From positions 1 through 64,000 of IMG/VR virus record IMGVR_UViG_3300048837_000398: a stretch of 64,000 nucleotides of DNA. The stretch is one strand, 5' to 3'. Position numbers and translations under genes: made by a program. Source of the DNA: a virus. The notes under the pieces were generated by a model. The model was given only the letters and a program-made list of their open reading frames with translations, was not told where the DNA came from and ran no database searches. Shown piece by piece: positions 6,210-55,202 of the stretch (position 1 is the first letter of the stretch; every line of letters begins with the position of its first letter).

Positions 6210-9200
6210 ATGATTTGCCCAAATAAAAACTCAAAAGAGTGGCAAGCTTTAGTAGACAGGGTGGGCGAAGATTACGCTCACCTTGTTTTTGAAGCTGAAA
6301 ACACGCCACTAAGCCCGAGCTCTATTCTAATGACTATGCGCGACCCACTCTTACGTGAGATCGAAGCTAAAGTGTTAGCAGCTCCACAATATTTCGTAGC
6401 TAAGTATTCTGACTACGGTTTCAAAGCTCTCGGTAAAATAGCGACTGCCGAAGAGCTCATTCAGCTTTTTTATGCTCGCGCAAAGAATATCGGTGGTACG
6501 CTAGAAGGAGACGTCATCAAAAAAGATAACGCTAACTTCTTGTTGTTCCCCGAAACAAAGCAGACGTTTCAGGCTGTTCCTAATAAGGATGTGCCAGCTA
6601 GGCTAAAGGAGTCTCTCGAGAATCTGTTCGAGCGTTCTGGAGTTCCGTTTGTCGTGATAAACGATGAAGAACAAAAGTTCAAAGGGCGCTTCATTAACGA
6701 CGGAGATGATCGCATAGTGATTATCAATTTAGCGTATGCCGAAAGTTCTACTCCTTTTCACGAGTACTATCACCCTTTCGTACGCGCGCTATCACTCACT
6801 AACCCGATACTGTTCGATACAATTTTAACCAAAGCTAAGACGCTAGCCGTAAAGCCAGACACTGATCCTGAAGAGTTGGTTGTCGAATACCTCGCTAAGC
6901 TCAAGGACTCTGAGAGCACTCTCCAAAGGTTTAAGCAGTGGGTGATGTCTTTCATCGCTCGAACGTTCGGTAAACCCAAAGTAACTGGGGCCCTCAACAA
7001 TCTTTCGGATCTTCTGACTTTCTTAGAGACAGATCTCGAGAAGGTTACGCTTTCAGAGACTACGCTTACACGTGCTGACTCTGATGTCGAGAACATTCTT
7101 AAGAGCTTGAGGGAAGGCGGAGTTTCCTACAAGTTCAACAAAGACACTACTAACACAAACTATATCGATGCGATCACTAAGCTTTCGAAAGAGCAGAACC
7201 TGACTACGGACGATACTTCTCTTTACTATCGAAACGAAGCTGGGGAAGAAGTGGCGATACGTCTTTCTTCTTTCGTAGGTGACAAAGAGATGGGAGAGTT
7301 CTCGCGTAAGTTCGCGAATAAACCTTATCCGTGGCCAGAGTATCAGGCTCGTCAGATCTTCAAGGGTCAAGGCTTCGATGTAGGCGATACACCTAAAGAA
7401 GACATAACTGCGACTATCTTACTTAACGGTAAGCAAGTTTCGTTTAGCGATATTCTTACTAGCCTTGAGAAGCAGTTCGGGCTCAACCGTATTTACGGTA
7501 AGATGGTGCATGCATTCCTTCAATTTAAGATGGAGCAAGATCCTGCTAAGAAAGCTCAAGCTCGTCTAGAAGCTAACAAGTGGGCTCTAGAACTAGGCAC
7601 TCCTTTTGCTACGCTCGAAACTCACACTGAGCTGGTCGAATACGAAGAAAACTTCGACAAGGTTCTAGCAGCTGCCCAAATTAACTTAGAAGGAGCTCGT
7701 CCAGACAAAGTGACTCCAGAGGTTACAGTGATGTCGAAGATTCTTAAAGATTCGTCAGGTAAGTTCATAGGTACTACCATCGACTCGTTGGTTCAGCACC
7801 CTAATAACGACGTCTCACTACTCGACTGGAAGACAGGTGATCTTCTTAAAGACGTCAACACTACGATCATGATGCAATATGGCGAGCGCTTAGGCATCGA
7901 AGACTCGAAGCTGAATAGGGCATACTTAGAAGTAGCGATACGTGCGATCATTCTTAAAGAGCACTTCCCGAACATGCGCTTCAGGAAGGTAGCGATTATC
8001 AAGCTTTCGAAAAAAGGTAAGCACTCGAGGTTGGAGGTAGATCTTAACCCGTTCTTCAGAATGCTCGAGATCTACTATAACGAGACTAATCCTGAGATAG
8101 CTAAGCAACTAAAAGATAGTGGGCTCCTAGAAACTGAAAAGTACTTAGGCACTAAGGGAGCACTCCTTTCTGCAATTCCCGGACAGCTACAATACGCTCC
8201 ACTAGGAGAGCAAATTCAGCACGTGCAAGCTAGGCTCGAAGGTATATACGCTCGAAACACAGAATTAGAGATAAAAAAAGATCCTGAGCTTTCACGTCAA
8301 GTTAAGATGTATTCGGATGCTCTTCTAGAACTCAAGAAGTTACCAGGTGTAGACTTGGATGCGGACCTCGAAGATATTCCTGCTACTACTGGAACACTCA
8401 AGAACTTATCAGACATAAAGAACGCTAAGATTCAAGTTCTTCATCGCGACATCTTGAAGGCTCGTCACAACGCTAACAAGCGTATTCAGTCGATAGTCGA
8501 TGAACACGACAAGCTCTCGCTGCAAGTTGTTGCTGAAGCTACGTCAAGACCTATCAAGATACTTCGTAAGCTAGCTGATGCAGGGTTTATTGCAGGACTG
8601 TTCGTTTCTCCGGGTATGGTAGTCACTTCGCTTGCTCTAGGCTTGCTACTGCGTCGACTCGATACTAACACAACTAAAGTGTTCGGATTCATGTGGAAGA
8701 AGTCTGAAGACCCTGGTCGCCAAGGATACTTCTTGAACACGACAGATTTCCACGACGGTAAGCAGCTAACTCCTACGCAACGTAAGTATCGCGACTACTA
8801 CGTCAGTCGGATGCACGAAGTCTACGCGTCTACTATGGAAGAAAAAATAGCTGAATTCGAAGGTGGGTTCGTACAGACACGTGGCGAAGTAAACAAGCTT
8901 CCGCCTACTCTTCCGCCCGACTTCATGCCTCGTGTACCAGCTACTCTTTCAGAGCTTCGCGAGAACGAAGGCTTCTTTTCTAACTTCATGGGCTTTCGAA
9001 CATCTTTACGCTACGTAATACGCAAGCACCTAGGAGACTACACTAAGCAGACTTCTAACTACGACGATCGCCAAGCTCTACCAGTCAAGTATGTTGCACA
9101 CTCTGGAGACCTCAACGTAGAAAGTGCTAATCACTCTTTCGACCCTACACGAGCTTTCGCGCTTTTCCTAGGTAACCTCGTCCACAAGCAAGAGTTCGAT

Positions 9201-10763
9201 CATCTCTATCCGATGGCTCAAGGAGTTATGCGCTCGCTCGAAGACGAAACTAATCCAGACGGTAAGCCCACATACCCGACACTCGTCAAGTTCTTAGACA
9301 ATCAGATCTACAATCAGATACTTCAGAAGCGTAAAGAAGGGCAGTTCACTACGAAGCCTATCGTCGTTACTGGTAGTATGGCCAAGATCTTAGGCATGAC
9401 TGAAGGAGAGTCGATACGCATATCTCAAGATAACCTTATCGATTTAGCGCGCTCAGGTACAGCCTACATGGTGATGTCGTTTAAGTTGGTGCGCGCTGCT
9501 GCTAACGGACTTCTTATTGCGACACTCAACGTTCAACAAGGAACTAAGAGTGCGCTCGCTAAAATAATGGGGGTACCGCCAGACGACTATACGCCTAATG
9601 CTAAAGCAACTGCCCTAGCTGCAGCAGATCTTCGTACTTTCTTCGCAGACAAAATGATGGGGCGAGAAGACAACAACAAGCTTTGGTTGTTAGCTAAGGA
9701 GCTCGACTTCATGCCAGACAACTACTACTTCACAGAAGACAAGACTAACTTCTATTCGGACTCTATCAAGTTCGCACCGATGTCCTATGCGTTCATGTTT
9801 CACAACATCGTCGAAACATATGGAGCGATCATGCACCTATCTATTCTTCTACGCTCTCTCAACTTAGAGAATGCGGCAGGAGAACGTTTCACAGCTTACG
9901 ATGCGTACTCTGTTAAAGATGGCAAACTAGTGTGGACTAAAGGCGTACGAGGCAAAAAAGAAATTGCTGAAGGAGTGTTCGAAGACTTGAAAGAGTTAGA
10001 CTTGTTCGAAGCTAAAAACATACGGCGAGCTTACGAGCGTCTACAAGGTTCGTACCGGACCGAAGAAAAGACAGCTGCTGAAGCGACAGTAATGGGAGCA
10101 TTCTTATTTCAGTTCAAGAAGTTCTTCGTGCGCTACTTGAAAGACTGGATAGCTTCTCCATACAAAGATGTGACTGTTGGTCACTACATTAAAAATCAAA
10201 ATATAGAACGACCAGATGGCGTACCAGTTTGGAAGTGGGAAAGCGAGGTTATGCAAGGCCGTCTTTCAGTTATGGCTGGAAGTATAGTTGCTGGGCTTCA
10301 AGGTAAGAAAGCTCTCGAACAATATATGGGGCAAGTAGACGTAGAAGGTAGAAAAGGTTCTCGCAAGAAATTGATGATGGAACTTACGAACACTCTTCTA
10401 TGGATGATTGCTCTTTACGTAGCTTTTATAATTGGCTTTCCTGACGATGAAGACAAGGGTACGTACACTGGTCGCTTAATGAAACGCCTCTGGCTAGACT
10501 CGTCTATGTCGTTGAACCCGATGGATCTGTTCGAAACTCTGAAAACACCTGTCGTAGCTTTTTCACGTGTGCCTGCGCTAGGAGAGAACTTTTGGAATTT
10601 CATGACATCAGGTATAACAGGCAAGACGACTCGGGAAGGTTGGCTAGTAGGGTCAAAACCACTACTGAAATCTATTCCTGGTGTCGGAGGTGGTATGCAG
10701 TTAATCGAATTATTAGAAGATTACGATGTCGAATCTCAATTCTTAAGCACACCCTTACGTTAA
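6210..10763 (+). CDS. Giant crAss-like virion/ejection protein with zincin-like and PD-(D/E)XK nuclease domains
   Basis: 1517 aa. N-terminus MICPNKNSKEW, HExxH motif (HEYYH), PD-(D/E)XK signature (TIDSL...LLDWKTG). Abuts the RNAP gene as in crAss-like phages. Confidence 0.75.
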   Translation: MICPNKNSKEWQALVDRVGEDYAHLVFEAENTPLSPSSILMTMRDPLLREIEAKVLAAPQYFVAKYSDYGFKALGKIATAEELIQLFYARAKNIGGTLEGDVIKKDNANFLLFPETKQTFQAVPNKDVPARLKESLENLFERSGVPFVVINDEEQKFKGRFINDGDDRIVIINLAYAESSTPFHEYYHPFVRALSLTNPILFDTILTKAKTLAVKPDTDPEELVVEYLAKLKDSESTLQRFKQWVMSFIARTFGKPKVTGALNNLSDLLTFLETDLEKVTLSETTLTRADSDVENILKSLREGGVSYKFNKDTTNTNYIDAITKLSKEQNLTTDDTSLYYRNEAGEEVAIRLSSFVGDKEMGEFSRKFANKPYPWPEYQARQIFKGQGFDVGDTPKEDITATILLNGKQVSFSDILTSLEKQFGLNRIYGKMVHAFLQFKMEQDPAKKAQARLEANKWALELGTPFATLETHTELVEYEENFDKVLAAAQINLEGARPDKVTPEVTVMSKILKDSSGKFIGTTIDSLVQHPNNDVSLLDWKTGDLLKDVNTTIMMQYGERLGIEDSKLNRAYLEVAIRAIILKEHFPNMRFRKVAIIKLSKKGKHSRLEVDLNPFFRMLEIYYNETNPEIAKQLKDSGLLETEKYLGTKGALLSAIPGQLQYAPLGEQIQHVQARLEGIYARNTELEIKKDPELSRQVKMYSDALLELKKLPGVDLDADLEDIPATTGTLKNLSDIKNAKIQVLHRDILKARHNANKRIQSIVDEHDKLSLQVVAEATSRPIKILRKLADAGFIAGLFVSPGMVVTSLALGLLLRRLDTNTTKVFGFMWKKSEDPGRQGYFLNTTDFHDGKQLTPTQRKYRDYYVSRMHEVYASTMEEKIAEFEGGFVQTRGEVNKLPPTLPPDFMPRVPATLSELRENEGFFSNFMGFRTSLRYVIRKHLGDYTKQTSNYDDRQALPVKYVAHSGDLNVESANHSFDPTRAFALFLGNLVHKQEFDHLYPMAQGVMRSLEDETNPDGKPTYPTLVKFLDNQIYNQILQKRKEGQFTTKPIVVTGSMAKILGMTEGESIRISQDNLIDLARSGTAYMVMSFKLVRAAANGLLIATLNVQQGTKSALAKIMGVPPDDYTPNAKATALAAADLRTFFADKMMGREDNNKLWLLAKELDFMPDNYYFTEDKTNFYSDSIKFAPMSYAFMFHNIVETYGAIMHLSILLRSLNLENAAGERFTAYDAYSVKDGKLVWTKGVRGKKEIAEGVFEDLKELDLFEAKNIRRAYERLQGSYRTEEKTAAEATVMGAFLFQFKKFFVRYLKDWIASPYKDVTVGHYIKNQNIERPDGVPVWKWESEVMQGRLSVMAGSIVAGLQGKKALEQYMGQVDVEGRKGSRKKLMMELTNTLLWMIALYVAFIIGFPDDEDKGTYTGRLMKRLWLDSSMSLNPMDLFETLKTPVVAFSRVPALGENFWNFMTSGITGKTTREGWLVGSKPLLKSIPGVGGGMQLIELLEDYDVESQFLSTPLR

Positions 10764-46389: not shown

Positions 46390-46734
46390 GTTAAAGTCCC
46401 CACTCTATTAGCATACGAGTGCACGGCCCAGAGAAGGTAATCCGAGGTATGGGTCCAGAAGTCGGTTTAGTAGTTCTAAATAGGAACGAGGTTTTCACCG
46501 ATAGGGCAAAAATGGTTAGTCAAGCAGCTTCTAGTGTTCGTACTGTTTTGCTATCGTTATCAGGGCTCCATATACAAGTGATAACGAAGTACGTAAGGTG
46601 TCTCTCACTGCTAGAAGTCAAGTGCCTAACTCAAGTTACTTTAGCGCCCAAAAATCGCTAGGGGGCTTGCTATATCGTTTTCTAAACTAGCGTCCTACGG
46701 ACGGAGGCGCTTCCGCCTAAATGGGGTGTCTTAA
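46390..46734 (+). ncRNA. Unassigned, highly structured RNA of about 345 nt
   Basis: Starts just after promoter 1. Closed by CCCCA/TGGGG, with nested helices such as TCGTTATCA/TGATAACGA and CTTCTAG/CTAGAAG. Confidence 0.5.
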
Positions 46735-48892: not shown

Positions 48893-49039
48893 ATGAAACG
48901 TCACTATTCTTCGAAACTAGACAAAGATGAAGCTCTAGCTTCGTACTCTCCACCACCCTTACCAAAGTCTCCGACTCCTCCAGCAAAAGATTCTTCTCCT
49001 ACACTTTGGCAAAAGCTAAAAAGGGTCGTATCTTTATAA
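48893..49039 (+). CDS. Small Pro-rich hypothetical protein
   Basis: 48-aa ORF MKRHYSS...WQKLKRVVSL. Confidence 0.4.
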   Translation: MKRHYSSKLDKDEALASYSPPPLPKSPTPPAKDSSPTLWQKLKRVVSL

Positions 49040-49047
49040 CATCAACC

Positions 49048-49279
49048 GGGGATGAACCAGGCTCGACTAGTTAGCTAGTATCTTTTAATCGACAATTACC
49101 ACTTCACTCTTGGCCTCGACATAGATCAAGATCTGCTTCTCTCTGTAGCGGATGAAACAACAGAGACAGTACCGTCCACATTACAAGAAGTTTTAGTTTA
49201 ATCACCACTCACACGCTTACCCACACGCTAGTAAACTAGCCTACTAACTAGGACGCGGGGGCAGTGCCCGCCATCTCCA
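49048..49279 (+). ncRNA. ssrA: tmRNA, compact (about 232 nt)
   Basis: 5' GGGGATGAACCAGGCTCGAC; 3' GGACGCGG-GGGCAGTG-CCCGC-CATCTCC-A; G3.U70 Ala determinant; P2 CTAGTTAG/CTAACTAG; resume context TAATC/GAC. Confidence 0.85.
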
Positions 49280-49814
49280 AGCGCCTATGCGAATTAAAGA
49301 AAAAGTTTGTTCTAATTGTCTTCAAACTTTCAAACCAACGTCGCGGCATCGACTCTGTCCTAAATGCAGAAACTCTCTCTGCAGGAAGGAATGCCAAAAT
49401 TGCGGACGACCTATTCAGTGTAAGTCAAAATATTGCGTACTATGTTCTAACAAATTAGAGCCGCGCAATACTTCACCACTAAAGATCAGAGCCGCAAACC
49501 ACGCTTTGAATAAAGCCCGTTCTCGTCACCACGTAGTAGACATAACTGCTGACTATCTAATAGAATTATTAGAACACCAACAGTCTAGGTGTGCTTATAC
49601 AGGTTTACCGATGTACTTACCTACATCTACTAAGTCTTGTGAAGATAAACGGTTATGCGCATCTTTGGACCGAATCGACTCCACCCTACCATACACAAAA
49701 GGTAACGTACAATGAGTAGTCGTACCAATTAATCTAATGAAAAATACTATGTCTGACCAAGACACTCGTGAATTTATTTCGTGGCTCAAGAATTCTTAGT
49801 GCCCGCCATCTCCA
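49263..49814 (+). mobile_element. Free-standing homing endonuclease cassette flanked by a 17-bp direct repeat of the tmRNA 3' end
   Basis: AGTGCCCGCCATCTCCA occurs at 49263-49279 and 49798-49814; only the distal copy is followed by CCA. Confidence 0.8.
49287..49799 (+). CDS. Cys-rich HNH-like homing endonuclease (in-frame TGA at 49713-49715)
   Basis: N-terminal CxxC pairs; QQSRCAYTG; SLDRIDS...YTKGNVQ*VVVPINLMK. Confidence 0.85.
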
Positions 49815-49816
49815 CC

Positions 49817-50023
49817 ATGACACGACTCGACGCAAATCTCGCAATTATCGACATCATCGCTTCTTACGCTAAGGCCTATCCGACTCTCAGATTCGGACAG
49901 ATCCTTACTAATCTTGACGTAGCGACACATCGCACATCTGACCACGGCTACCTCGACATTTTCAACGAAGAGCCTCAGTCAACACTTCAAAGAGTTACTG
50001 ATAGTTTGCCGAGGATTGACTAG
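49817..50023 (+). CDS. Hypothetical phage protein (YPTLRFGQ family)
   Basis: MTRLDAN...YPTLRFGQIL...DIFNEEP. Confidence 0.6.
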   Translation: MTRLDANLAIIDIIASYAKAYPTLRFGQILTNLDVATHRTSDHGYLDIFNEEPQSTLQRVTDSLPRID

Positions 50024-50257: not shown

Positions 50258-50343
50258 ACTCTAGTGGCGGAATCGGTAGACGCTATACTAAGCAGCTGAA
50301 GCTAGGCAATTCAGCAGTACAGGTTCGAACCCTGTCTAGAGCA
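50258..50343 (+). tRNA. Leu-like tRNA body with aberrant elongated anticodon arm
   Basis: TGGCGGAATCGGTAGACGC D arm and ACAGG-TTCGAAC-CCTGT T arm. Central arm GCTGAA-GCTAGGCAA-TTCAGC. Confidence 0.55.
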
Positions 50344-51867: not shown

Positions 51868-51963
51868 GGGGGTGCTTCACTGTTGCAGAACAGGACTAGT
51901 CTTCAAAACTAGACGACTGGGGTCCAAACTCAGTTTATTCGGGTGCAAGTCCTGACACCCTCG
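51868..51963 (+). tRNA. Opal (UGA)-decoding tRNA, anticodon TCA, Ser/Sec-like body
   Basis: Acceptor GGGGGTG/CACCCTC plus G73; D stem CTGTT-GCAG-AACAG; CTAGT-CTTCAAA-ACTAG (TCA at 51903-51905); long variable arm; T arm TCGGG-TGCAAGT-CCTGA. Confidence 0.85.
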
Positions 51964-52415: not shown

Positions 52416-52660
52416 CAGCCAACCTATCGTTTCTAGACAACGAAGTACTGCTCTATCACTCGACACTCCAACTAGAGAGTGTGAAAGATGTCGACAAAGC
52501 GCTAGACGCAGAGCTCTCAAACTTAAAGATGGCGATATTCGCTCACATCTACAAAAACCGTCCTTCAGAGTGGCACGAACCAACGCCGCTTCCTAACACA
52601 AACTTACTCAATGACAAAGAAAGTTATTACAGGCCCATCACTCCAGACGTCACTACTTAA
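52409..52660 (+). CDS. Hypothetical protein
   Basis: ORF in operon context. Confidence 0.5.
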
Positions 52661-55202
52661 TGGCGTAAATACTATTGCTAATGCAGTAGGATCAACTCTT
52701 GGCCCACTAGGCCGTAACGTAGTTATCGAAACTCCGTATGGCGCAACAACTGTTACTAAAGATGGTGTTACAGTTGCTCAACAAATTACTCTCGAAGATC
52801 CTCTCGAGAACTTAGCTGTTCAAATTATTAAGCAGGCATCAGAGCGCACAGCTTCTATAGCTGGCGACGGACCACAGCCCCTTTATTCGAAAGTTCTCAC
52901 ACCAACTGGGTGGACAACTCTAGGTGAACTAAAAGTTGGAGATACCATTTGTGGTACAAATGGTACTACACAAAAGGTCGTAGGCTTTTACCCTAAAGGA
53001 CCCTTACCTTTATATAAGGTTATTTTTTCGGACGGAAGAACAGTTGAATGTTCGGAAGACCACTTGTGGACCGTGACCACTAATTACGGAAAACAAAAAA
53101 CTCTGCCTCTAAGTGAGCTTATAAATCAAGGTTTGTCGTTAATTAACGACGACGGCCACAATAAGTACAAGTTTTTTGTTCAAACTACTGAAGTAGAATT
53201 TGATGAAAAACCCCTCCCCTTAGATCCTTACTTTCTAGGAGTATTGCTTGGAGATGGTTCCCTAAGTGGAAGTGGTGCAATTGAGCTCTCGTTAGGCCTC
53301 AAGAAGGCACACATACTACAAAAGCTTCTTTTGCCAGAAGGCATGAGTTTTACGATCGCTTTAGATGAATCTAAAAATTATATTAGAGTTAGATTTCAAG
53401 GTGCTGATAAAAATGGGAAAAATCTAAAAGACATTCTTTTAGATTTAAATTTGCTCGGAACACATAGCGCTACAAAATTTATTCCGGACCTATACCTCTA
53501 TTCGAGCTTAAAATCTCGCGAAGCCCTTTTACAGGGTCTCGTAGACACTGATGGCCATGTTAATCTTCGTGGCAAATTCGAGTTTAGTACTATAAGCGAC
53601 CAACTATCTGCCAACTTTCAAGATTTGGTACGCTCACTGGGCATTCAGACGCACTACACAAAGTTAGACCGAACATATTCTGGCGGATATTCTGTAAACC
53701 CAGTCCATCGGATAGTAGAATTAAAAGGGTACAAACACGGCATCAAAATAGTAGATGTTCAACCTCAAAACAGATTTGAGGAGATGGTCTGTATTAAAGT
53801 TTCAAACGATGACCATTTGTACATCACAGATGAATATGTCGTCACACATAATACAACTACTGCAACAGTACTCGCGCAAAAGCTTTATTCCGAAGCACTT
53901 AAACTAGTTAACTCGGGTGTCGCCCCTATCCACATCAAGAACGATTACGAAGCCTACTTAAAAGCTATCGCCCCTCTTATCGACGATAATACGCTCCAGA
54001 TTACGACGCCTCAAGACACGTACCAGATCGCACTTATTTCTGCGAATAACGATCCGACTATTGCATCTCTTATTTCGACAGCTATCGAATACGTAGGCAA
54101 GGATGGCTCGATTACACTCGAAGAGTCTAAGACTGGCGAGTCGTATGTAGAGCTAGTAGACGGTACTTCTTTCGAGCGCCCTTACGCTTCTCCGTACTTC
54201 GTCACTAATCCGCCTAAAGGGACAGCTGAACTCACCAATCCGCTCATCTTTATTACGGATAAGAAACTTCGCTACAATCAAGAGCTTCTTCCCGTACTCA
54301 ACTTAGCAGCCGATAACTCACGTCCACTAGTTATTATTGCAGACGATATCGAAGGTCAAGCTCTTCAGACGCTCGTCATCAACAAGCTTCGCGGTACTAT
54401 CGAGGTGCTAGCTATCAGAGCTCCTTCGTACGGTGAGAACCGTCTCGAAGTACTTAAAGACCTCGCAGCCCTCACTTCAGCGAACCTTATTACAGAGCTC
54501 TCTGGAACACGTATCGAAGATGTTAAGCTCACTGATTTAGGTGAAGCGGCTAAAGTGATTTCTTCGCGTCACCAAACTATCATTGTTGATGGTGTTCAAG
54601 ATCCCACCCAAATCGAAGCTCGTGCGAGTACAATCACACAGCTTCTCGCTCAACATCAGCCAGACTCATATTTCTATAAGCAGCTCTCTACTCGACTAGC
54701 TAAGCTCACTGCTAAGGTTGCAGTGCTCAATGTAGGAGCACCTACAGAAACCGAGCTTAAAGAGCGCAAAGCCCGTGTTGACGACGCACTTCGAGCTACT
54801 ACAGCAGCTATTAAAACTGGTTTCGTAGTTGGTGGCGGTACGCTTCTCGCTAAGCTCTCGACTACCCTCCCTAACGATCTTTCGTCTAAAGCCTTCGCAC
54901 TAGCTCTTCAAGAACCTCTTCGTCGAATAGCTGAAAATGCTGGACAATCTCCGTCTCTCGTCCTTTCAAAAGTACTTGAGAACCCTTCGATTTCATTCGG
55001 TTATAACGCTTTAACTGACTCCTATACAGATCTTATCGAAGACAAGGTTATCGATCCTGCACTCGTAGTGAAGCAAGCGCTACTCTCCGCAGTTTCAGCA
55101 GCAAACATGCTCATCCTATCTTCGACTGCAGTCTACAATGTAGATCGCACTCCTCCTTATTCTCCAGGCTCTCTAAATGATTTTGAATCGCACGAATCCT
55201 AA
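52611..55202 (+). CDS. groEL: GroEL chaperonin precursor containing an intein (536 aa after splicing)
   Basis: [37 protein letters not shown] and VIDPALV motifs. Confidence 0.95.
52872..53852 (+). mobile_element. Class 3 intein with LAGLIDADG endonuclease in GroEL (327 aa)
   Basis: Starts [17 protein letters not shown] triad: EDHLW, MVCIKV, VVTHN/T. Endonuclease motifs GVLLGDG and GLVDTDG. Confidence 0.9.

Follow-up and report, generated by a model that had tools for sequence, protein, structure and literature searches.

The stretch of DNA analysed here (the window; 64,000 nt) comes from a virus record of 103,011 bp that is complete and bears terminal repeats. On its forward strand lies a compact gene with the architecture of a one-piece tmRNA, preceded by a promoter-like element and followed by an HNH/endonuclease VII-like gene (Table 1). 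Two tRNA-like genes lie further downstream, one with the anticodon UCA. The other (50258-50343), which scores 32.3 bits with Rfam tRNA and has no ARAGORN call, combines a Leu-type D-arm with a 31-nt insert that replaces the normal anticodon arm. The window also encodes a GroEL of 863 aa (52611-55202), 3.3 kb downstream of the tmRNA-like gene, whose PF00118 domain is interrupted by an intein with the homing-endonuclease domains PF05204 and PF14528; intein-less relatives of this GroEL are 535-537 aa long and 63-74% identical to it.

Table 1. Features of the tmRNA-like gene and its surroundings (window coordinates)
Feature	Position	Strand	Details
Promoter-like TTTG-N20-TATCTTTA upstream of the RNA	49005..49036	+	Direct reading, motif scan
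tmRNA-like gene, one-piece, pseudoknot-free, no encoded CCA	49048..49279	+	232 nt; direct reading, script, scan
Acceptor 5' strand GGGGAUG	49048..49054	+	Pairs with CAUCUCC 49272-49278; G3:U70; discriminator A49279
D-loop analogue AACCAGGCUCGA	49055..49066	+	Direct reading
P2a 5' strand CUAGUUAG	49067..49074	+	Pairs with CUAACUAG 49244-49251; 8 bp; in MFE fold
A/U-rich single-stranded resume context UAUCUUUUAAUC	49079..49090	+	U at -5, A at -4; direct reading
Candidate tag frame	49091..49201	+	36 codons from GAC 49091, then TAA 49199-49201
7-bp hairpin inside tag frame, loop AGCGGAUGAAACA	49140..49166	+	Kept in the sister phage L128
T-arm GCGGG-GGCAGUG-CCCGC, non-canonical T-loop	49255..49271	+	Abuts acceptor 3' strand
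17-nt direct repeat AGTGCCCGCCATCTCCA, proximal copy	49263..49279	+	Completes the tmRNA gene; repeat search
HNH/endonuclease VII-like gene at tmRNA 3' end	49287..49799	+	TGA 49713 read as sense
Distal repeat copy plus CCA (displaced original 3' end)	49798..49817	+	Second copy 49798-49814, then CCA
tRNA-like gene, CUUCAAA anticodon loop (anticodon UCA)	~51868..51963	+	96 nt, long variable arm; direct reading

Architecture of the tmRNA-like gene

The first-pass annotation, made from the letters of the window, had described an intact tRNA-like domain (TLD) with G3:U70 in an RNA of about 232 nt that leaves little room for pseudoknots, and direct reading together with a script confirmed this. The D-loop analogue resembles the usual tmRNA motif GG.UUCGAC, and the T-loop reads GGCAGUG where the usual tmRNA consensus is UUCGAnU. 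An architecture scan for a 7-bp acceptor starting with GGG, G3:U70, an adjacent T-arm of 5 bp with a 7-nt loop, a discriminator A and a span of about 125-505 nt had a single match in the 103-kb genome, the element at 49048-49279, at a chance level of 0.04 matches per shuffled genome.

tmRNAs typically contain four pseudoknots (PMC11915505). All four (PK1-PK4) are absent from 49048-49279, in which only simple hairpins are predicted. The usual set is impossible here because only 12 nt, from the last P2 pairs to the GAC that opens the candidate tag frame, and about 42 nt, from the stop codon to the P2a 3' strand, flank the frame within P2. PK1 is normally important for tmRNA; in E. coli, PK2-4 are replaceable and a hairpin can substitute for PK1.

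The TTTG-N20-TATCTTTA element upstream of the gene is a putative promoter of the RNA. Further copies of its (C)GTATCTTT(G/A) motif were found by motif scan at about 46377 and about 46785, and a simple sigma-70 scan of 49005-49036 listed TTGGCA-17-TATCTT.

A covarying homolog in a sister phage

An intein-less GroEL, 67% identical to that of the window, led to IMGVR_UViG_3300013121_000016 (L128, the same as L167 and G403), a complete 103,169-bp DTR phage that is syntenic with the window. In L128, the counterpart of the gene upstream of the element is followed directly by a 245-nt homolog (8645-8889) with the acceptor GGGCCUG...CAGGUCC-A-CCA, the discriminator A8886 and an encoded CCA. The T-arm geometry (5 bp, 7-nt loop) is present in both phages, with the T-loop GGCAGUG in the window and the canonical UUCGACU in L128.

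All seven acceptor pairs form in both phages; positions 4 and 5 are changed on both sides in L128, while G3:U70 and A73 are kept. The 8 pairs of P2a show two compensatory changes and one one-sided change relative to L128, and the hairpin at 49140-49166 shows three compensatory pairs around the invariant loop AGCGGAUGA, with no pair broken in either helix. Over the four helices together (acceptor, T-stem, P2a and mid-hairpin), 27 pairs include seven compensatory changes and one one-sided change, and none is broken. This covariation is the principal sign that selection acts on the RNA fold, and the conservation of a hairpin inside the frame shows selection on RNA structure at that position as well.

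Relative to shuffled sequences, the alignment of the two elements scored z=13.8 over the whole element and z=8.1 over the inner region (165-173 nt). Identity was 71% over the aligned inner columns versus 65-68% for the flanking genes; between these two phages, the element is at least as conserved as its neighbours. Elsewhere in the 13-kb comparison, a 94-nt block (window 46426-46518, L128 6221-6314) is 86% identical and is the best-conserved DNA of the comparison.

Searches for more family members, using the tag end and the mid-hairpin in viral contigs and a two-block pattern in metagenomes, returned only chance matches apart from the sister contig. Blastn of 3 kb around the element against GenBank phages matched the tRNA-Ser and nothing else, and ARAGORN found no tmRNA in 28 other GroEL-carrying phage loci (among L129-L162).

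The candidate tag reading frame

The frame opening at GAC 49091 translates to DNYHFTLGLDIDQDLLLSVADETTETVPSTLQEVLV, and the other two frames are closed. Both the resume context and the run of 36 codons to the TAA at 49199-49201 are as the first-pass annotation had them, and the context, U(-5)A(-4), is host-like. The same two bases precede GAC in L128; in E. coli, A86, at position -4, is the main frame determinant (PMC2481249). In L128 the GAC frame runs for 41 codons (DESLSFAASIPSWAVTYIQAAPLTSTADDQVEAPELLEVLV) and ends in TAG, again with the other two frames closed. A conventional small open reading frame was ruled out in both phages, as the interval from the preceding in-frame stop to GAC contains no start codon; in the window, no ATG, GTG or TTG occurs between the in-frame TAG at 49076-49078 and GAC 49091.

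Conservation of the tag frame in related phages had been suggested as a check, and the single relative identified does keep the frame, with 41 codons against 36 in the window and EVLV and a stop closing both. Both peptides lack Lys and Arg, contain 7-8 acidic residues and share the C-terminus L-x-E-V-L-V, which we treat as solid. The nucleotide block encoding this end, GAAGUUUUAGU(U/A)UA(A/G), differs between the phages by one synonymous and one stop-to-stop change, and the indels relative to L128, 21 nt between GAC and the hairpin and 6 nt between the hairpin and the stop, are both multiples of three. L128 contains an apparent 21-nt internal duplication of the resume-context block at 8677-8720 (AAUCUUUAAAUGAC... 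then UUUCUUUUGCUGCC...), which appears to account for most of its longer frame. In shuffled sequences, the interval between GAC and the hairpin was open by chance with p=0.26 (window) and p=0.35 (L128), and these frame statistics are modest because the element is present in just two genomes. Conservation is lacking in the middle of the peptide, where the two phages read one homologous nucleotide block in different frames.

The tag could be short with the same C-terminus, because the frame encloses a conserved hairpin and, in L128, relaxed ARAGORN has the tag begin right after it, resuming at a GCA that begins on the last base of the hairpin stem to give APELLEVLV. The homologous codon of the window is ACA (Thr), and the bases upstream of it are paired. 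We judge the long tag to be roughly twice as probable as the short one. Of the earlier description of a long, non-canonical tag, the conserved and acidic frame stands, but length is not a unique feature, since Gracilibacteria have tags of 22-25 residues. The accompanying suggestion of a "non-degron" tag is unsupported because EVLV, the candidate tag end, would be a hydrophobic C-terminus, though not an Ala-rich one.

An HNH gene inserted at the 3' end

Between the two repeat copies (49263-49817) lies a 535-bp insertion that contains only the HNH/endonuclease VII-like gene, and the distal copy overlaps the next ATG. The sister phage L128 has no insertion and encodes CCA. CCA is missing from the window element because this insertion, with its 17-nt duplication, displaced the original 3' end. 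The duplication leaves a complete gene, to which CCA would have to be added post-transcriptionally; it is likewise not encoded in the phage tRNA-Ser and tRNA-like genes that were read. The PHROG score of the HNH frame was 47.9 bits when the frame was cut at its TGA, 71.9 bits with TGA read as Trp and 67.2 bits with TGA read as Gly.

Neither an integrase nor a group I intron signature was found in the 535-bp insertion. A group I intron was rejected, as no Rfam Intron_gpI match reached the gathering threshold and no repeat boundary gives a -1 U together with a terminal (omega) G. An attP site or integration remnant was also ruled out, as the tRNA-like domain retains its two halves and these covary.

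Phage identity, UGA recoding and host

The virus is a distant crAss-like phage, with a portal about 29% identical to those of Crassvirales. TGA is read as sense in the PolA, primase, helicase and DnaB-like genes (window 11-29 kb) and in the HNH gene (49713); the exonuclease and polymerase domains of PolA span a TGA. Profile scores favour Trp over Gly at most sites, the difference (Trp minus Gly) being +7.6 bits for primase, +4.7 for HNH, +4.5 for ResIII, +1.4 for PolA, +1.0 for DUF3799 and -1.0 for DnaB_C.

The first-pass annotation had placed a UCA tRNA 2.6 kb from the element. Such a gene is visible by eye at about 51868-51963, but neither ARAGORN nor Rfam calls it. L128 has an ordinary 75-nt tRNA(UCA) at 9159-9233, 270 nt downstream of its tmRNA. 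The UGA readers of the window (96 nt) and L128 (75 nt) look unrelated. The first-pass annotation had also suggested rescue at UGA and a translation-control module formed with the UCA tRNA; what speaks for such a link is the shared neighbourhood, with a tRNA(UCA) near the element in each phage.

Clues to the host conflict. A 25-mer covering the T-arm and acceptor strand was searched in one genome per prokaryotic species and occurred exactly in seven species, six of them Candidatus Gracilibacteria, which suggests a possible Gracilibacteria host. Gracilibacteria read UGA as Gly. Such a host is contested because Trp is the better-scoring reading of the phage TGAs, the virion genes are of crAss-like type, and upstream of the element lies a TAnnTTTG-like motif, which we take to be of Bacteroidota type.

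Detection by standard tools

ARAGORN and the Rfam tmRNA model, proposed earlier as checks, did not return the element. ARAGORN called no tmRNA at 49048-49279, relaxed thresholds included, and no Rfam tmRNA model matched at the gathering threshold; the T-arm alone matched alpha_tmRNA (11.2 bits, E=1). These negative calls are not decisive because the T-loop GGCAGUG replaces UUCGAnU and ARAGORN misses Rfam-validated examples too: its defaults overlook tmRNAs with the variant T-loop GGCAGUG that Rfam scores well above threshold. With thresholds at 95% (-ps only), ARAGORN called the L128 homolog a tmRNA at exactly 8645-8889, and RF00023 matched the T-arm alone in this homolog (18.5 bits).

Comparison with known tmRNAs

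The 3' 28 nt of the window element recur exactly in 11 IMG/VR contigs, where they form the acceptor piece of permuted two-piece tmRNAs that score 104-110 bits with RF04321 and carry the canonical tags ANDSKFALAA, ANDNYYTEELRLAA and ANDSVYALAA. Exact and degenerate 5'-end patterns also returned chiefly permuted tmRNAs; on viral contigs, 84 of the 124 matches to the degenerate pattern were permuted genes, mostly with the T-loop GGCAGUR. Permuted phage tmRNAs (RF04321) resemble the window element in their near-identical tRNA-like domain, their T-loop and their phage-borne location; in one Rfam-validated viral example (L033), the 5' 19 nt differ from those of the window element by 1 nt. They differ in gene order, with the acceptor piece upstream of the coding piece, whereas the window has the 5' half, the message and then the 3' half, and RF04321 does not hit the window because of this standard order. 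Unlike the permuted genes, the window element also passes from P2 to the frame with neither a hairpin nor a pseudoknot, and its frame encodes an acidic EVLV tag of 36-41 codons across the two phages instead of an ANDSKFALAA-type tag. With the architecture scan and the covarying sister homolog, the 3'-end identity supports the earlier view of a tmRNA-derived gene with an intact tRNA-like domain.

Compact permuted tmRNAs are known from aquatic phages, such as Melnitz and pelagimyophages (PMC9004378). Among Crassvirales, the uncultured phage cr50_1 (MT774375.1) carries a permuted tmRNA that scores 60.3 bits with RF04321. The candidate tag of this gene (L209 1500-1870; MT774375.1 39410-39778) is GNNFVTDYTAIGA, and within its intervening sequence is a T-arm-like GAGGTTCGACTCCTC that may belong to an embedded tRNA-like unit. 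In L033 (minus strand, about 500-760) and L126, a partial tandem duplication of the permuted tmRNA puts the 5' TLD half upstream of the acceptor piece, which creates a 122-nt one-piece TLD-only unit beside the intact permuted gene. Through such a duplication, a permuted gene could perhaps return to the standard order.

The one-piece tmRNAs of Gracilibacteria (RF00023) share with the window element G3:U70, A73, P2, U(-5)A(-4), the identical 25 nt in six species and long tags. Four of their loci scored 53-94 bits with RF00023. In the Gracilibacteria MAGs (L186-L191), the T-loop is GGCAGUG or GGCAGUA, and the four tmRNAs measured are 430-449 nt long with basic tags of 22-25 residues. ARAGORN defaults miss the Gracilibacteria genes, and one was found only at 80% thresholds, mislabelled as permuted. 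In contrast to them, the window element measures 232 nt, lacks pseudoknots, has an acidic rather than a basic tag and gives no full-length RF00023 match.

Other known forms are more distant. The TLD-only tmRNA of mycobacteriophage DS6A is also a phage-encoded, drastically reduced ssrA derivative (PMC4131195), but it has essentially no message domain, whereas the window element keeps about 165 nt of conserved inner sequence that includes an open frame. Group I introns occur in the T-loops of tmRNA genes, some with LAGLIDADG homing endonucleases (PMC11915505). These intron-interrupted genes and the window share an endonuclease gene at the T-loop or 3' end; the window differs in that no group I intron was detected in it, a 17-nt duplication flanks the insertion and the enzyme is of HNH type. 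Work by Gur and Sauer in 2008 reportedly showed that long Mycoplasma ssrA tags are recognised by Lon. Mycoplasma tags are likewise much longer than 10 residues, with a degradation signal unlike the LAA of ClpXP, and they differ from the phage EVLV tag in sequence and organism. What is new in the element, as read here, is the combination of standard gene order without a pseudoknot or hairpin before the frame, an acidic EVLV frame of 36-41 codons, and an HNH insertion with a repaired 3' end, in a gene unseen by both tools.

Discussion

We propose that the element is a functional one-piece phage tmRNA, consisting of a tRNA-like domain, P2 and a message, in its long-tag form, and we give this reading slightly less than an even chance. 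It is read as host-dependent because SmpB is absent from both phage genomes and neither encodes a CCA-adding enzyme. The RNA would be transcribed from a host-type promoter, cut at its 5' end by RNase P and trimmed at A49279, where the host CCA-adding enzyme would supply CCA. Host AlaRS would then charge it with alanine via G3:U70 and A73, and host SmpB and EF-Tu would bring it to ribosomes that have stalled on mRNAs that are broken or lack a stop codon. Translation would most likely resume at GAC 49091, set by U(-5)A(-4) directly after P2, and would append an acidic tag without Lys or Arg, 36 residues long (41 in the sister phage), with a hydrophobic L-x-E-V-L-V end. Such an RNA may serve ribosome recycling during infection and place a phage-specified end on rescued proteins, probably a protease signal unlike that of the host.

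Several observations speak against a functional long-tag tmRNA. Its resume codon would lie at nt 44, far nearer the 5' end than the typical position at about nt 85-110, and the misses by standard tools, the absent pseudoknots, the non-canonical T-loop, the unconserved peptide middle and the lack of a phage SmpB weigh in the same direction. Alternatively, the same functional tmRNA could resume just after the hairpin at 49140-49166, with the hairpin replacing PK1 and the upstream open frame being coincidental. Resumption at nt 119 or 140 and the resulting tag length would fit ordinary tmRNAs. This possibility, which we consider unlikely, predicts about 10-11 residues in the window (T/V-PSTLQEVLV) and APELLEVLV in L128; the commonest tmRNA tag length is 10 aa (PMC11915505). 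It draws on the choice by relaxed ARAGORN of the GCA right after the hairpin in L128, on the three compensatory pairs of the hairpin, and on the bases before the post-hairpin site, U(-5)A(-4) in L128 and C(-5)A(-4) in the window. However, to our knowledge, known tmRNA resume codons start with G, and the window codon is ACA (Thr); moreover, the bases upstream of it sit in the 7-bp stem and are not single-stranded. Resumption after the hairpin would also leave unexplained the 25 and 32 upstream in-frame open codons, the 21-nt indel and the conserved GAC with its U(-5)A(-4).

Two further explanations would dispense with translation of the message. By analogy with DS6A, which carries little beyond the TLD and where a similar molecule strongly inhibits tmRNA, perhaps by SmpB titration (PMC4131195, PMC11915505), the tRNA-like domain may act as a decoy that binds host SmpB, and perhaps AlaRS and EF-Tu, and so blocks host trans-translation. 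Besides this TLD-only precedent, the lack of a phage SmpB agrees with such a role, and pseudoknot loss with a very short linker from P2 to the frame could disable message loading. We consider it quite improbable: a TLD alone would suffice, yet the inner region of 165-173 nt is conserved (z=8.1), the start-less frame stays open with its end and stop conserved, and the A86-type context before GAC is kept. We think it equally improbable that the element is a decaying or co-opted ssrA remnant from the host or another phage, damaged by the HNH gene and serving at most as a tRNA-like processing signal or a homing site for the endonuclease. The HNH gene in the 3' end with its 17-nt duplication, the missing CCA, the rejection by standard tools and the restriction of the family to two genomes after pattern scans of viral contigs and metagenomes would fit decay. 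Against it, all 27 checked pairs are intact and seven are compensatory, the duplication restores a complete gene instead of breaking it, and the element is conserved at least as well as the neighbouring genes (71% versus 65-68%). In addition, the sister copy, which carries no insertion, is reduced in the same way, so the reduction must be older than the HNH insertion.

A broader proposal, which we regard as very unlikely, would join the tmRNA and the tRNA(UCA) into a UGA-recoding toolkit. With UGA suppressed by the phage tRNA(UCA), ribosomes would pass the UGA stops of host and early genes and reach mRNA ends, where a pseudoknot-independent phage tmRNA would rescue them, and the long acidic EVLV tag put on the aberrant products would be routed unlike the host tag. 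If this were true, phage and host rescue products would meet different fates.

In sum, if the functional one-piece tmRNA that we favour is active, it would be a natural tmRNA working without pseudoknots, with about 16 nt between P2a and the resume codon. It would then set a much smaller lower bound for trans-translation than current models assume and give experimenters a minimal scaffold that is ready to use. A tmRNA is present in about 2.3% of phage genomes (PMC9004378). One class of phage tmRNAs escapes both ARAGORN and Rfam, and ARAGORN defaults also miss the Gracilibacteria tmRNAs with the T-loop GGCAGUG, so the proportion of phages that encode a ribosome-rescue RNA is probably underestimated. 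Finally, the conserved, non-host EVLV tag end in a TGA-recoding crAss-like phage would offer a direct way to ask about the fate of rescued proteins.
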